From contig JBBROH010000003.1 in assembly GCA_038229595.1 (NCBI GenBank), forward strand, positions 1-63,845: a stretch of DNA of 63,845 nucleotides, read 5' to 3'. Below are positions 55,292 to 63,845 of the stretch, one piece after another (position 1 is the first letter of the stretch; each line of letters begins with the position of its first letter). The notes under the pieces were generated by a model. That model was not told the origin of the DNA. It made no database searches and was given only the letters and a program-made list of their open reading frames with translations. The translations under genes and the position numbers were made by a program. Source of the stretch: Chloroflexia bacterium (GTDB lineage Bacteria > Chloroflexota > Chloroflexia > QHBQ01).

Positions 55292-55545
55292 TCAGTCTTC
55301 TACTTCGGCCTGCAACCAGTTGGCGACGCTCTGGCGGTTGACACCGAGAGAGCGGGCAATGGCACTGAGGCTGCGACCCTCGCGGTGCAGACGGCTAGCC
55401 TCGGCCCGCAAGTCGGGCTGATGACCCATAGGCTTGCGGCTGGGTGTGAAGTAACGTTGGCAGGCGCGGCATTGATAGCGTTGGCTGCCGCTGGGGTTGA
55501 GGCCTGCCTTGACCGTGTTCGTGTGCTGGCAGTATGTGCAAGCGG
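55292..55545 (-). mobile_element. IS1-family insA-derived segment, in frame with the regulator
   Basis: CxxC-N-K-x-G-x-x-x-x-G-x-QRY-x-CxxC zinc ribbon plus HTH typical of InsA. Confidence 0.7.
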
Positions 55546-59038: not shown

Positions 59039-59182
59039 CGGTACGCGCTCCAATGTTAAGCCTTGTGCTGATTATACCCGATGCCACCACTGTGGTTGGC
59101 AGCCAGTTGATCACCGAATACTGCTGCCCAGTGTGTGACTACAGCATAGCTGATGTAGCGCAGTATGTAGCTAGCCGCTATC

Positions 59183-59385
59183 TTACTGCCGCAACTGCGC
59201 GTTCATCCCTTCTAGCGGGTACGTGTTACGCTTACCAGCACTCACCTCGTGCCGCCCACCGCCCGGCCACGCCAAGTGCTGATGAACCGCCAGCCCGTCA
59301 CTGTAGTACACCTCGGCTGCTGGCAAGCTGTCGGCTAATAACTGCATCGTCGCTTGCTCCCGACTCTCCACTACTTCGCAGCGCG
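59183..59385 (-). mobile_element. IS1-family insB remnant
   Basis: EVYYSDGLAVH-x-x-L-x-WPGG-x-H-x-V-x-x-GK-x-NTY-x-LEG-x-NAQLRQ; truncated at both ends. Confidence 0.65.
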
Positions 59386-61089
59386 CCGACCAACACAGCG
59401 ACGAACACGGCTACGCTCACCAGCACGCCGACGCGCAGCAGCACGCCGACAAGCAGCCCAACCCCGATCCAGTACGACTACGTAAGCGGGCGGCTGGGGG
59501 ACTGGGACAGCGGCAATGCTATCCCCGGCAGCATAGTTAAGCTGTACAAGGAAGATGTCAATCATGTACGTGGTGGCACAGCCGTAGCAACGGCAGTTGT
59601 TGCCAGCAATGGTAGCTGGGTACTGCAGGCTCCTGTTTCAGCACGGGGGTCTAACTTCAGTGGCTACGACATAGTGCAGGAGCCGACCCCCGCCAACTAC
59701 TACAACTACAACGTTAGTATTCCCGCTGGTAGTCAGCCCGCGCTACCGCTCAACGCTGCGTTCCACTTCGAGATGACGGAGACTGGGCCTAAGCTGAGTT
59801 CGGTAGATGGGGCGATCTTCTGGCTGCGCTACACGGGCAATGGCCCCCGGCTCGATGGTGGCTCGTCTATAATCAAGCGGGTGAGCAAGACCACCTACTA
59901 CATCGGCGGCGTGTACGAAGTGGACAGCGATGGCACCACGCGTAGCTACTTCGGCGCAGGGGGAGCTACGGCTCTGCGAACGACTAGCGGCGGGAGCCAG
60001 AGTGTGCTATACTTGCATGGCGACCATCTGGGTAGCGTCAGCCTGGCGACGGACGGCGTGGGCAACAAGGCAAGCGAGCAGGACTTCGACCCCTGGGGCG
60101 GCGCACGAGGCAGCGGGAGCATTAGCCAGACGACGACGCGCAACTACACGGGGCAGCAGCTAGACAGCACGGGGCTACTGTACTACCACGCCCGGATGTA
60201 CGATCCAGGATTGGCACGGTTTGTCAGTGGCGACAGCATCGTGCCACAGGCACCGTCCAGTCTAGCAGTGGATGCACACGAGAAAGGGATTGTTCTAGCT
60301 GTAAACAGTCAGAACGTTGTTGTGACAGACGAAGGTTTCCGCTTCCAATCCCAGAGAGGCGAGAACACTAACGCACCTTCCAACCCGCAGAACCTCAACC
60401 GTTATAGCTACGTCAACAACAATCCAGCCTCTCACTTGGATCCAAGTGGTCACAACCTCACAAACCCAGGTGGGAAGGTTCACAATCGCAGCCATAGAAC
60501 AGTGTTGGTCTATGGTAACATAACGGCAAAGGACTTTTATGCCAACTGTGGTAACGGACCTGATCATCCTTATTCGTGCCAGCTAGACCCTAGCATGAGT
60601 CAGCACTGGGTGTACGGAAGCGATGGCAGTGGACACAAAGCAGGTGGTGGTCTTTCAGCAGAAGATCAAGCTAAACTAAACTCGCTGTCCCCAGAGGATC
60701 AGAAGAATCTGGCAATAGCCAATGGTTACGACCTACAAGGCTGGTTTGTTCTGGGGGCGGGTAAGGACTCTGATACCTGGCTCCATATGCCCGATGCTGA
60801 TTTTGTCCGAGCAGCTGATCACGATACTATATACGAGTACTCACAAGCCTGTGTTGTTTGGGTTATATGTAGCAGTTCACAAGGGTCAGGCCATGCTACA
60901 TCAGAACTCTATAAGTTGGCAGACAGCCAAGAAGTAGTCATTACTGACGATCTAGGATACTTGAACTTGTCGGTGAGCGGATTCTATTTCCATATCAATC
61001 CCTTCGGGACCTCCAACGGTTGGCATCATTGTAAGTACAATGGAGACGACCCGAGTCATCCTACCTGCGAGTACGGAACTGTGCGGTAG
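59380..61089 (+). pseudogene. 5'-truncated RHS/YD-repeat polymorphic toxin with unrecognised C-terminal tip
   Basis: Pro/Thr linker, TTYYIGGVYEV, YLHGDHLGS, DFDPWG, YTGQQLDSTGLLYYHARMYDP, PQNLNRYSYVNNNP...DPSGH; no start codon or RBS for the RHS part. Confidence 0.8.
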
Positions 61090-61296
61090 GAACCACTTGT
61101 TGGAGGTGCAAAAGCGTCAGCACAGCCAACGAGGTCTGGAGAGTGTCGAGTGACACTCAGCTAGTGCGTACGCAAGTAGTTGCGAAGGTTGAACGAAGAC
61201 GCATGGCCTGAGATACAGCAGGAACCAAGTGCGTAGGCTATAGGGTGACAGCCCAGCTAGAACAGTGTTGTAGGTCAGTTAAAAGAGGAGACAGCT

Positions 61297-62607
61297 ATGA
61301 ACTCTAATCAACAACCAATGCCTTCTACGCTAAGACAACGTGGGTCGAAGAGCAAGACTCGTCTGTCTGCACCTCACAACGTTAAAAAGTATGTTTGGCT
61401 TTCTATTCTTGTAGTATTTATATCAGGTGCGGTTGGGAGCGCAGCTGTAGCTAACTCTAACCCTGATGTGCAGCGGCAGATAGTTCAGCAGTCAGTTTGC
61501 GGTACCTGGAAAGTTACCACTGGGCCTAAGCTAGGGTATAATCCGCTTCATACATTTAGCGGTGTGGCTGCTGTCACAGGAGATGATGTTTGGGTGGTTG
61601 GATCTAAGCTAGGGCTTTTTGGATGGACTAAAAATGAGCCACTATCTCGTCACTGGGATGGGGCAAAATGGCAAGAGTTTGCTATTCCAGGTGCGGGCGG
61701 TGGAAGAAATACTTACCTAACCAAAGTTGTAGCTCGATCTACCAACGATGTGTGGGCTGTTGGTGCCTCGAACGATGATGGCAGAGCACACCGTACCTTT
61801 GTCACACGGTGGAATGGTAACAAGTGGAATGTAGTTGATAGCCCCAACCCTGGACAATATAGTAACGGTATCAGTAGTGTAGCTGCTATTGCTGCTGATG
61901 ATGTATGGGTAGTTGGTGACTATGAAGATAAAATCTCCAACCCACAGCCGCTGCTGCTGCACTGGGATGGTCATGGCTGGCGTAGCGACACGAGCTTCAA
62001 ACTTAGAGGCAGCAGTGGGGATATTCGTGACGTACTGGCGTTCGCCTCGAACGACGTATGGGCTGTTGGTGGCTACTTCCACAACGGCAAGGCTTACTCT
62101 TTGGTAATACATTGGGATGGCAGTCAGTGGAGTGAGGTAGCTATACCAGGCGAGGGCGATGGCATTGGTCTACAGGTTCTAGCTGGTTCTTCTGCCCAAG
62201 ACTTGTGGATAGCTGGTTATCGCGGGAAGGGTGAGGCCCTAATGCACTGGAATGGCGTAAGTTGGAATGTACCAGCGCAGCCTGCTGGAACTAGTAATAA
62301 CGTAATATATGGGATAGAGGTAACATCCGAGAAGGATGCTTGGGCTGTAGGACCAGAACTAGACTCGAACAATAACATACATCCTAAAATCCTGCATTGG
62401 GATGGGAACCAATGGACACAAGTGTTTAGTCTTCAGCAGGAAGGTGAGCAAGCCTTCTATGAGATAGTAGTAGATAAGAATAAGGATGTGTGGGCTGTTG
62501 GGCGCAGCTACGATGCTGAAAGTCACATCTCCTACGGCTTGACTGCCCTGCTCAAATCTTCTTCATGCTCTGTAGGTGTTAACTCTACCATACGCGGAGA
62601 CAGGTAG
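61297..62607 (+). CDS. Secreted/anchored beta-propeller protein (WAVG...HWDG-x-x-W repeats), candidate immunity protein
   Basis: GAGGAG RBS, N-terminal hydrophobic segment, about 7 repeats, low GC, first intact gene after the RHS tip. Confidence 0.75.
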   Translation: MNSNQQPMPSTLRQRGSKSKTRLSAPHNVKKYVWLSILVVFISGAVGSAAVANSNPDVQRQIVQQSVCGTWKVTTGPKLGYNPLHTFSGVAAVTGDDVWVVGSKLGLFGWTKNEPLSRHWDGAKWQEFAIPGAGGGRNTYLTKVVARSTNDVWAVGASNDDGRAHRTFVTRWNGNKWNVVDSPNPGQYSNGISSVAAIAADDVWVVGDYEDKISNPQPLLLHWDGHGWRSDTSFKLRGSSGDIRDVLAFASNDVWAVGGYFHNGKAYSLVIHWDGSQWSEVAIPGEGDGIGLQVLAGSSAQDLWIAGYRGKGEALMHWNGVSWNVPAQPAGTSNNVIYGIEVTSEKDAWAVGPELDSNNNIHPKILHWDGNQWTQVFSLQQEGEQAFYEIVVDKNKDVWAVGRSYDAESHISYGLTALLKSSSCSVGVNSTIRGDR

Positions 62608-62611
62608 TAAC

Positions 62612-62990
62612 AAGCTGTGGAGTGGGCCACCTACCTCGGCGGTAGTGGAGTGGAATGTGGTATATAGCTGGCTGCGCCCGATGGTTCGCTCTATGTCTGT
62701 GGTACTGCCTACTCAACTGACTTTCCTACAACCACTGGCATCTATCGCTCCGTTTTCACTGGCACAGTCGGCTACCCTGACCTCTTCGTGACCAAACTTG
62801 CCCCTGACGGTCAATCTATCATCTTCTCCACCTACATTGGTGGCACCGTCGGTGAGCAGGGTGGCTGTGAGCAGTTCTACCCCAACGGTGATGTTCTTAT
62901 CGTTAGCGATGCAGCCATCTAGCACGCCAACCCCTATTGTCACCGACACCAGCACAGCCACACCCAGTGCTGCTATGTTGACAGCGCGGT
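62612..62990 (+). pseudogene. SBBP-repeat gene remnant
   Basis: EWATYLGGSG...*...GSLYVCGTAYSTDFPTT...DLFVTKLAPDGQSIIFSTYIGG with stops, then a Pro/Thr linker in another frame. Confidence 0.65.
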
Positions 62991-63523
62991 AGCGATAATG
63001 GCTCTTAGCTTTATCACCTTCCACAACCATCAACTCTAATCCCATTCTCATCCTCCACAACATTGACCTGAGCTACCAACCTGTGCTAAAATATTTCCAC
63101 GTCAGCCGGTGCATGGCACTGACGCTGATCACTCAATCCCGGTGACAGGTTGAGGCTTGGTTGTACCCGCTGCATGGTGCATGGCATTGTTCAGCTACAA
63201 CTAAGTTGGCATAGCAGGTACTCTAGCGTTGGTGACACACCTCCGCTGCCTATCTCCTTGGCCGCACCAACCCTATACTGGCTGCGGCCTGTGTGTATAC
63301 ACGGGGCAAACATCACCCACAGCCAGCCGGTGCCAACCCTCGACCTATCGGTGGACGGTGACGCACCAACCCACCGCCGACCTGCTACCAACAGTCGGCA
63401 ACCGACCGAACAAGCGGAAGGGCTACGGCCTCTGCTTGTCCGGGGCGGTCGGGCCGCATCTAACGGGCCTGTTCTCTCCCCTGACAAGTCACGACCTCGC
63501 CCAACTTGAACATGAGGTTGATT

Positions 63524-63845
63524 GTGACCAAAGCACCACGCTATACCTCGGCAGTGGTCGCCCTTGACGCGATCCACGCGCCTGCCGAGCAACCGCGCCT
63601 GCTGGTGGACGACCTAGGCGACCTGCAAGCCAGCATTGAGCAGCATGGCTTCTTCAGCAGCGTGCTGCTTGAGCAGCAGCCAGATGGCAGCTACCGGCTG
63701 ATACATGGCGCACGTCGCTTGCAGGCAGCGCGGCAGGTGGGCCTCACCGAGATACCGGCACAGGTTTACCCCGCTGGCAAGTTCAGCCCAGCGCACATAT
63801 GGCTTACCCAGATCGACGAGAACGAGCGGCGCAAAAACCTTTCCC
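63524..63845 (+). CDS. ParB/Spo0J-like protein, N-terminal part (runs off the window)
   Basis: GAGGT RBS, GTG start; QPR...L-x-ASIEQHG...YRLIHGARRLQAARQVGLTEIPA...DENERRKNLS; absent from the ORF track because it has no stop. Confidence 0.8.
   Translation, partial: MTKAPRYTSAVVALDAIHAPAEQPRLLVDDLGDLQASIEQHGFFSSVLLEQQPDGSYRLIHGARRLQAARQVGLTEIPAQVYPAGKFSPAHIWLTQIDENERRKNLS

Follow-up and report, generated by a model that had tools for sequence, protein, structure and literature searches.

The window analysed here is a stretch of 63,845 nt from a Chloroflexota-type metagenome-assembled genome (MAG; 318 contigs, 87% complete). Within it, with somewhat more confidence than doubt, we read the segment 59382-62607 as a displaced orphan rhs-CT/immunity cassette: the 212-aa tip at the C-terminus of a broken RHS protein would be an undescribed cargo acting on the cell envelope, and the membrane protein encoded by the next gene, 61297-62607, would protect against it. 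The type of system, an RHS cargo with its partner in an orphan cassette, is known; what is new is the cargo domain.

On homology grounds, the tip is a conserved and previously unnamed RHS cargo domain, represented at five loci in one class, Chloroflexota-type. A preliminary description of the window had placed an unrecognised tip directly after the DPSG autocleavage motif, with a visible fall in GC content, six cysteines in three apparent pairs and a GWFVLG/DFV segment, had recognised no known motif in it and had proposed a candidate new toxin family. These points have held. In translation, 60451-61086 (+) encode 212 residues (60451-61089 with the stop codon), all six cysteines and the segment are present, and GC falls from 0.594 in the rhs core to 0.488 in the tip. 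Neither phmmer nor profile searches with the tip gave a match in Pfam, NCBIfam, PADLOC or PDB sequences, and for all five members nothing was found in Pfam, NCBIfam or PDB at E-values up to 1-10; the candidate family now stands as an undescribed conserved domain with five members.

A phmmer search of 1.8 billion cluster representatives returned one true relative, P0004, the tip of a metagenomic locus (L006; E = 1.6e-21), which is 43-51% identical to the window tip and keeps all six cysteines together with the motif block. Since this homologue keeps them, we judge the window tip to be coding and non-random. The L006 contig holds an orphan tip open reading frame (ORF) that has a stop codon just upstream and is directly followed by the gene for a 440-aa homologue of the product of 61297-62607; a transposase-like remnant was also recognised there by eye. 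Further relatives were reached by following this propeller-type partner into genomes of the same class or order. In a genome of the same family as that of the window (G464:C221, locus L132), a tip cut by the contig end is followed first by a 442-aa propeller anchored by a transmembrane (TM) segment and next by another rhs core fragment; at the two other propeller-linked orphan loci, L006 and L132, tip identity is 27-43%. The preliminary description had also suggested looking for the tip on other RHS cores, and two full-length RHS proteins carry it. One, from the same order (G435:C25), is a complete protein of 2515 aa with the tip after DPTGH, detected with a three-tip profile (E = 6.4e-9) and with BLASTP (2e-6); it shows RHS_repeat, DUF11, an Ig-like insert, a weak SpvB match and an N-terminal hydrophobic signal. 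The other, from another family of the same class (G531:C1), has 2605 aa and the tip after DPNGH; its per-genome E-value was only 0.009, and hhalign against the four-member profile gave 96.6% probability and E = 5.9e-10. In both complete RHS proteins the tip sits directly after DP[TN]GH.

Elsewhere the searches were negative. A two-sequence profile found no relatives in a 400-genome sample of the phylum, no tip was found among carriers of 805-2562 aa (the query being the shell of the paralogue C144 joined in silico to the rest of the window protein), the query itself was the only match among proteins of 373-1186 aa, and degenerate-pattern scans of genome and metagenome contig collections gave no tip. 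Several candidates were discarded. The other phmmer matches, P0005 and P0006, are repeat-protein false positives; the 120 loci with a DADFVxAAD pattern are chance matches, none of which has GYLNL or GKxSDT; and the marginal matches L164 (Asp-tRNA synthetase), L165 (transaldolase) and L174 (a beta-helix surface protein) were dropped, as were L171-L173 and L175 on their E-values alone (0.02-0.05 across about 400 genomes).

Ten residues are invariant in the five-member alignment (in window tip numbering D115, D117, V119, A121, Y154, K155, V162, I164, G190 and W191), giving a family core of the form DxDxVxA ... YK ... VxI ... GW. Two of its elements are a DxDxV motif, tip D115-A-D117-F-V119, encoded at 60793-60807 (+), and a Tyr-Lys pair, Y154-K155, encoded at 60910-60915 (+), each present in all five members. 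The GWFVLG...DADFV block of the tip reads GWFVLGAGKDSDTWLHMPDADFV / QGWFVLGAGKDSDTWLHMPDADFVRAAD; the GKDSDT segment, H148 and E129 of the window tip vary among the five. The tip is acidic (pI 4.5-5.4) and hydrophilic, with no hydrophobic segment. In base composition it goes with the gene that follows: GC is 0.488 in the tip and 0.487 in the downstream gene, against 0.594 in the rhs core and 0.62 in the genome, and third-position GC (GC3) is 0.48 and 0.42, respectively, against 0.69 in the rhs core. Tip and downstream gene lie in a low-GC island at approximately 60300-63100 (about 0.47-0.53 against 0.62), which also takes in some 500 bp of non-coding or decayed DNA.

The cysteines of the window tip stand at positions 33/43, 134/140 and 194/206, with 9, 5 and 11 residues between the paired ones, and the 355 RHS residues that precede the tip contain none. 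The L006 tip also has six cysteines (8, 4 and 13 residues between partners), the G435 tip eight (5, 4, 6 and 5), the G531 tip four (7 and 7) and the visible part of the L132 tip two (4). The number is even in every member, the pairs are local, and whole pairs are gained or lost, at partly different positions: the middle pair is absent from L132, the last one from G531, and G435 has extra pairs. Even, local and jointly gained or lost cysteines of this kind fit the short-range disulfides of an exported protein, and the pattern is unlike that of CxxC metal sites or catalytic cysteines.

The gene that carries the tip in the window is, as far as its alignments indicate, a 5'-truncated rhs remnant that keeps the autoproteolysis motifs YDPGLARFVSGDS and DPSGH. 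The ORF 59053-61089 (+) encodes 678 aa, and its sole family match is TIGR03696, the RHS-associated core (E = 3.7e-17, residues 345-397 and a second stretch). This core, at 60085-60450 (+), contains YDPGLARFVSGDS and NRYSYVNNNP....DPSG and aligns with the cores of the complete RHS protein C30 of the same genome and of L008, an RHS locus from another Chloroflexia MAG. The aspartyl-protease motifs (RxYDPxxxRF..D) and the DPxG site precede the tip, YHARMYDPGLARFVSGDS and NRYSYVNNNPASHLDPSGH being present and aligned. At the putative cleavage point the ORF reads ...PQNLNRYSYVNNNPASHLDPSG followed by HNLTNPGG..., with NRYSYVNNNPASHLDPSG just ahead of the H. Upstream of the core lie an inserted domain of about 200 aa (59466-60084, +), placed between the last YD strands and the core and 79-90% identical to the paralogues C202 and C144, and a Thr/Pro-rich linker (59382-59465, +) that marks the 5' truncation point of the orphan. 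The inserted domain has no Pfam match in the window; in the G435 RHS, N_BRCA1_IG (Ig-like) matches the equivalent insert (L166 residues 1916-2005). Across this rhs lineage the order is the last YD strands (...YEYDADGERAARTFD), the Thr/Pro linker with the domain of about 200 aa, then KTTYYIGG... and the core.

What would be needed for delivery is missing from the window gene. RHS_repeat has no match anywhere in the 678-aa ORF (Pfam); the YD shell is found in the paralogue C144 and in the relatives L166 (G435) and L170 (G531). Residues 1-110 contain no signal peptide, no domain and no ribosome-binding site (RBS), and they overlap antisense coding DNA, namely an IS1 fragment and, over the first codons of the ORF, the start of a divergent STAND regulator gene. 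There is no RBS ahead of the ATG at 59053, and a credible start is lacking. Having no YD shell, export signal or credible start, the window gene as it stands could not deliver the tip. The preliminary reading of an RHS toxin tip is in this regard right about the cargo position, which the tip occupies on full-length RHS proteins of relatives; the window carrier is truncated and undeployable.

At the DNA level, the similarity of the window to its rhs paralogues, C144 and C202, starts exactly at position 59382, inside the linker, and the DNA upstream is unrelated to any rhs (blastn). The alignments, both with 86% identity, extend over 622 nt for C144 and 843 nt for C202, that is, the orphan shares its core with other rhs genes of its genome. 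Abutting the 5' end of this homology, at 59186-59410 (-), is a fragment of an IS1-family insertion sequence (IS) transposase (tblastn 51%, E = 3e-17, against an intact 272-aa IS1-like ORF on C256); the 75-aa fragment has no match in Pfam. Next to it lies the gene for the 1253-aa BTAD/AAA_16 STAND regulator, the last part of which is made up of an InsA-like zinc ribbon and a helix-turn-helix (Pfam Zn_ribbon_InsA and HTH_23; window 55292-55545, minus strand), and IS1 pieces flank the regulator on both sides, the InsA-like end at one and the InsB-part fragment 59186-59410 just upstream of its start at the other.

In C144, about 800 aa of YD shell precede the Thr/Pro linker, the insert (about 200 aa) and the core; its identity to the window protein is 90%, and it is cut off by the contig end inside the same repeat as the junction. 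The second rhs fragment, C202 (2342-5339), sets in at the linker, has other DNA upstream and stops inside the core; the 612-aa protein encoded next resembles HEAT-repeat proteins by eye. The genome also holds a complete RHS protein of 2162 aa with an N-terminal signal peptide and a Gly/Ala-rich hydrophobic tip (C30, 2462-9702) and a frameshifted orphan rhs fragment (C45, 7653-8928, minus strand). We consider it highly improbable that the junction is an assembly artefact, in which the repetitive Thr/Pro linker of a full-length rhs was fused with unrelated DNA, so that the tip really belongs to an intact RHS. The incompleteness and fragmentation of the MAG, the low complexity of the junction and the way in which C144 runs off its contig in the same repeat speak for an artefact; but the window copy and C144, at only 86% identity, are different copies, and IS fragments flanking the junction offer a biological cause. 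That C202 is truncated at the linker too, behind other upstream DNA, and that the IS fragment is present lead us to regard the junction as probably real.

From these comparisons, we take the cassette in the window to be an orphan of the rhs-CT type that has been moved to the side of an IS remnant. It does not lie directly downstream of the main rhs, its upstream neighbours being the IS1 fragment and the divergent STAND regulator. At the G435 locus, by contrast, the full-length RHS is followed by orphans in the classic array; the order there (L166, G435:C25:31000-42500) is tip, 76-aa 2-TM protein, 286-aa rhs-CT fragment with a different tip and 274-aa polytopic membrane protein. The repetitive linker, which is the start point of both orphan copies (window and C202), may serve as a recombination site.

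The first gene after the tip is predicted to encode a membrane protein at all five loci. In the window this is the candidate immunity protein P0002 (61297-62607, +), of 436 aa, with a basic N-terminus, one TM or signal-anchor helix (about residues 33-51; maximum hydropathy 2.19), about seven hWDGxxW blades and conserved Cys68 and Cys424. It has a weak match to the Pfam Rax2 propeller, and an RBS, AGAGGAG, can be read at 61284-61290 (+), 6 nt before its ATG. At all three orphan loci (window, L006 and L132) the first downstream partner is such a TM-anchored propeller of about 440 aa with a cysteine near each propeller end; the same propeller family is large and also occurs without toxins. A maximum-likelihood tree built from 41 single-propeller proteins pairs P0002 with the L006 partner as sisters (support 100/97). 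Together with the L132 partner and two toxin-less, likewise TM-anchored members, P0083 and L135, the two form a subclade with a support of 0.93, the internal order of which is weakly supported. Among 401 genomes of the class, the propeller is almost wholly limited to the order of the window genome. Many single-propeller relatives of P0002 have a cysteine before blade 1 (CGxW) and another at the extreme C-terminus (..HYC, ..HCC, ..PC); these paired end cysteines suggest a ring-closing disulfide and, with it, an extracytoplasmic location for the whole propeller family.

At the two loci with full-length RHS proteins the partner is a miniprotein: a 76-aa 2-TM ORF in G435 (L163), with a weak holin-like match below threshold, and a 91-aa 3-TM ORF in G531 (L170). 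There is no space for an extra gene between tip and partner in L006, L163 and L170. Other RHS loci are similarly arranged: a TPR lipoprotein comes after the C30 tip, a membrane protein of 105 aa after the C45 tip and a 274-aa polytopic protein after the second G435 orphan; C202 is an exception to this lipoprotein or membrane partner theme. The theme extends to L008 (JBBQXW010000013.1, 574-3689), which encodes an RHS tip with VHEIGHIID, by eye a zincin-like HExxH, with no Pfam match, followed by two proteins with lipoprotein-like signals; it is likely another extracytoplasm-acting RHS cargo of the class.

The state of the two genes bears on whether the cassette is still of use. That the tip, and perhaps the propeller gene, are a dead relic, decaying and unexpressed leftovers of IS rearrangement that are never re-used, is an unlikely explanation with some points in its favour: the carrier is truncated beside an IS1 fragment with no credible start or RBS at 59053, other rhs genes of the genome are broken as well (C202 ends early, C45 is frameshifted), and the DNA downstream, 62608-63100, is decayed. 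Yet both reading frames are intact (212 and 436 codons), P0002 has a strong RBS, C144 provides an 86%-identical recombination substrate, and the pair of tip and propeller has stayed whole at two further orphan loci, where the tips are 27-43% identical; this speaks for selection, at least where the partner is concerned.

Besides the junction in low-complexity DNA of a MAG fragmented into 318 contigs, several observations weigh against the reading of the segment as an orphan cassette with an envelope-acting cargo and a protective partner. P0002 shares only 37% identity with its counterpart in L006, and the propeller family returns more than 2700 matches, exported chloroflexotal and actinobacterial proteins, some of them with SLH domains. 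Among its closest TM-anchored relatives are some with no toxin nearby, P0083 (L130) beside guaA and a serpin and L135 beside a GTPase and a hydrolase, so that the propeller subclade is not exclusively toxin-linked; this weakens the assignment of immunity without removing it. The class of partner differs between orphan loci (propeller) and full-length loci (2-3-TM miniprotein), and the 207-nt gap ahead of P0002 contains no recognisable promoter. Finally, no fold or activity is assigned to the tip: AlphaFold2 models from a two-sequence alignment (A1) and with the L006 tip first (A2) reached pLDDT values of 38 and 46, both unusable. The Foldseek comparison proposed in the preliminary description, run with a low-confidence model, gave no significant match in the PDB (best E = 0.86, nothing at E<=0.001).

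With these points in mind, we still think that the tip probably acts at the outer face of the cytoplasmic membrane or in the envelope. The disulfide-like cysteines, the membrane partners, the lack of space for any other gene and an export route without entry into a target cytoplasm all point to this site. The preliminary description had argued for an extracytoplasmic target from the probable disulfides; the cysteines do behave as disulfide pairs and all five partners are membrane proteins, the disulfides themselves being still putative. A tip working in the cytoplasm of the target, with metal-binding or incidental cysteines and a propeller that is an unrelated surface protein of the island, seems unlikely to us. 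Most characterised RHS tips are nucleases, NADases and ADP-ribosyltransferases (general knowledge; PMC3482391, table), the propeller family is huge and mostly toxin-free, and there is no tip fold by which an enzyme of nucleic-acid metabolism could be excluded. However, the partners are membrane proteins at five of five loci, with no room for another gene in L006, L163 and L170; spacings of 4-13 residues and pairwise gain and loss are unlike CxxC metal knuckles, and the tip is acidic, with no nuclease, deaminase or ADP-ribosyltransferase motifs and no Pfam match.

It is very unlikely, in our opinion, that the tip is no toxin at all and serves instead as a binding module, for example for carbohydrates or surfaces, the propeller being a surface protein that co-operates with it, or a receptor, and no immunity factor. 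Toxicity is what we infer, as are the site of action, the chemistry and immunity by binding; the relatives of the propeller resemble ordinary surface proteins, some with SLH domains, and the invariant DxD could be a structural Ca2+ site. Against this, the tip sits at the exact post-DPxGH cargo position of complete RHS proteins, and to our knowledge this cargo is a toxin in every characterised RHS/TcC case. In addition, a polymorphic domain in a low-GC island, with small TM proteins after it in orphan arrays that contain other tip/membrane pairs as well, bears a toxin/immunity signature.

As for the chemistry of the envelope-acting tip, a hydrophilic and acidic domain with no hydrophobic segment is unlikely to be a helical pore-former, and a nucleic-acid enzyme is not favoured. 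Known catalytic patterns were compared by eye and rejected: the HAD-type DxDx[TV] (domain too small, motif spacing wrong, no Pfam match), the colicin M DxYDxN...HR (the histidine is not conserved), the SGNH GDS (the serine context is not conserved in L132 or L163), a papain/NlpC Cys-His pair (every cysteine is paired), ricin QxW repeats (unconserved) and deaminase or zinc CxxC sites (spacing wrong). Our tentative guess is a metal-dependent enzyme, with the DxD and the Tyr-Lys pair, that would act on a membrane-bound lipid-linked envelope precursor or on a lipid. It is doubtful, though conceivable, that the tip founds a new fold or enzyme class of disulfide-stabilised antibacterial toxins, directed at the outer face of the membrane or at the envelope of Chloroflexota, with a catalytic DxD...YK centre and two unrelated kinds of neutralising membrane protein, one being the TM-anchored propeller.

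In RHS and TcC proteins the shell encapsulates the unfolded tip, and aspartyl autoproteolysis at DPxGH releases it. In this lineage, the N-terminus of RHS proteins has a signal peptide (C30) or a hydrophobic signal (G435). In a complete RHS, the protein would be exported and the tip then released from its cocoon by autoproteolysis. The released tip would fold outside the cytoplasm, held by two to four short-range disulfides, and its point of attack would be a component of the envelope or of the outer face of the membrane around the cytoplasm. By binding to it at the surface of the membrane, the TM-anchored propeller 61297-62607 would block the toxin and protect the producer and its kin, and elsewhere the 2-3-TM miniprotein would take over the protective role. 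The window carrier would have lost its YD shell and export signal at the IS1-associated junction 59382, and the cassette could act as a recombination reservoir for the full-length rhs on C144, a use made possible by the 86% identity to C144 over more than 600 nt. The propeller gene may also guard against kin with an active toxin.

Orphan rhs-CT/rhsI modules are known in Enterobacteria (Poole et al., 2011, PMC3150448; Koskiniemi et al., 2014, PMC3967940). The window cassette resembles them in being a 3' rhs fragment with no delivery part, in sharing its core with a full-length rhs of the same genome, and in having its own divergent tip, a downstream partner gene, an atypical GC content and a possible route to re-activation by recombination. 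It differs from them in lying beside an IS1 remnant and a STAND regulator, and not directly downstream of the main rhs, in a recombination substrate that includes the Thr/Pro linker and the inserted domain, and in its Chloroflexota-type host, where RHS proteins are apparently Sec-exported and not linked to a type VI secretion system (T6SS). In position and modular behaviour the cargo domain is like the catalogued Tox-/Ntox domains (Zhang et al., 2012, PMC3482391), which sit at the C-terminus behind an RHS core and ahead of a partner gene; none of the five members matches these domains as represented in Pfam.

The closest functional analogy is found in Streptococcus intermedius, where TelC, a type VII secretion system (T7SS) LXG toxin, is a lipid II phosphatase, and its immunity protein TipC, anchored by a TM segment at the N-terminus and with the inhibitory domain turned towards the wall zone, is required only when toxin arrives from outside (PMC5555719; PMC6193138). 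By prediction, the window pair would likewise combine a toxin acting outside the cytoplasmic membrane with a TM-anchored immunity protein, the layout of P0002 (an N-terminal TM helix and then an extracytoplasmic domain) being that of TipC; there is no sequence similarity, and TipC has a crescent alpha/beta fold and not a propeller. The two full-length loci, where the tip is followed by a 76-91-aa 2-3-TM protein, are instead reminiscent of systems of the Tse5/Tsi5 type. Small polytopic proteins are a typical format of immunity against membrane-acting toxins, such as Tse5/Tsi5 and colicin-type pore formers. Unlike toxins of the Tse5 or colicin type, the tip is hydrophilic and acidic, and since it has neither hydrophobic helices nor a glycine zipper, a classical helical pore is unlikely.

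An exported seven-blade propeller can be a tight inhibitor of an enzyme outside the cytoplasm, as BLIP-II, a secreted seven-bladed propeller that inhibits beta-lactamases, illustrates; it belongs to no toxin/immunity pair and has no membrane anchor. We know of no characterised polymorphic-toxin immunity protein in the format of a TM-anchored seven-blade propeller; the format would be unusual and, if the immunity role is true, would bring a new structural class to the toxin inhibitors. Conceivably, the genes for propeller immunity derive from a housekeeping propeller of the envelope, and this propeller could itself be the target or receptor of the toxin.

Polymorphic toxins, including RHS proteins, are a main source of new antibacterial activities, and very little is known of them in Chloroflexota, whose envelope is atypical. 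In this regard, the small family, with its five loci, its ten-residue core and its membrane partners of two kinds, suggests a target in the envelope, accessible from outside the cell, and the locus illustrates orphan rhs cassettes and IS-driven shuffling beyond Proteobacteria. Uncharacterised RHS tips are common, and the window tip is one more, on a broken carrier, which makes its immediate significance moderate.

Downstream of the propeller gene, still within the low-GC island, an open frame with no start codon (62668-62922, +; ...YVCGTAYSTDFPTTTGIYRSVFTGTVGYPDLFVTKLAPDGQSIIFSTYIGG...) looks like part of an SBBP-type beta-propeller repeat protein that has probably decayed. Further on, GC returns to about 0.61-0.63, and an ORF with a ParB N-terminal domain (63506-63844, +; Pfam E = 7e-11) runs off the end of the contig.

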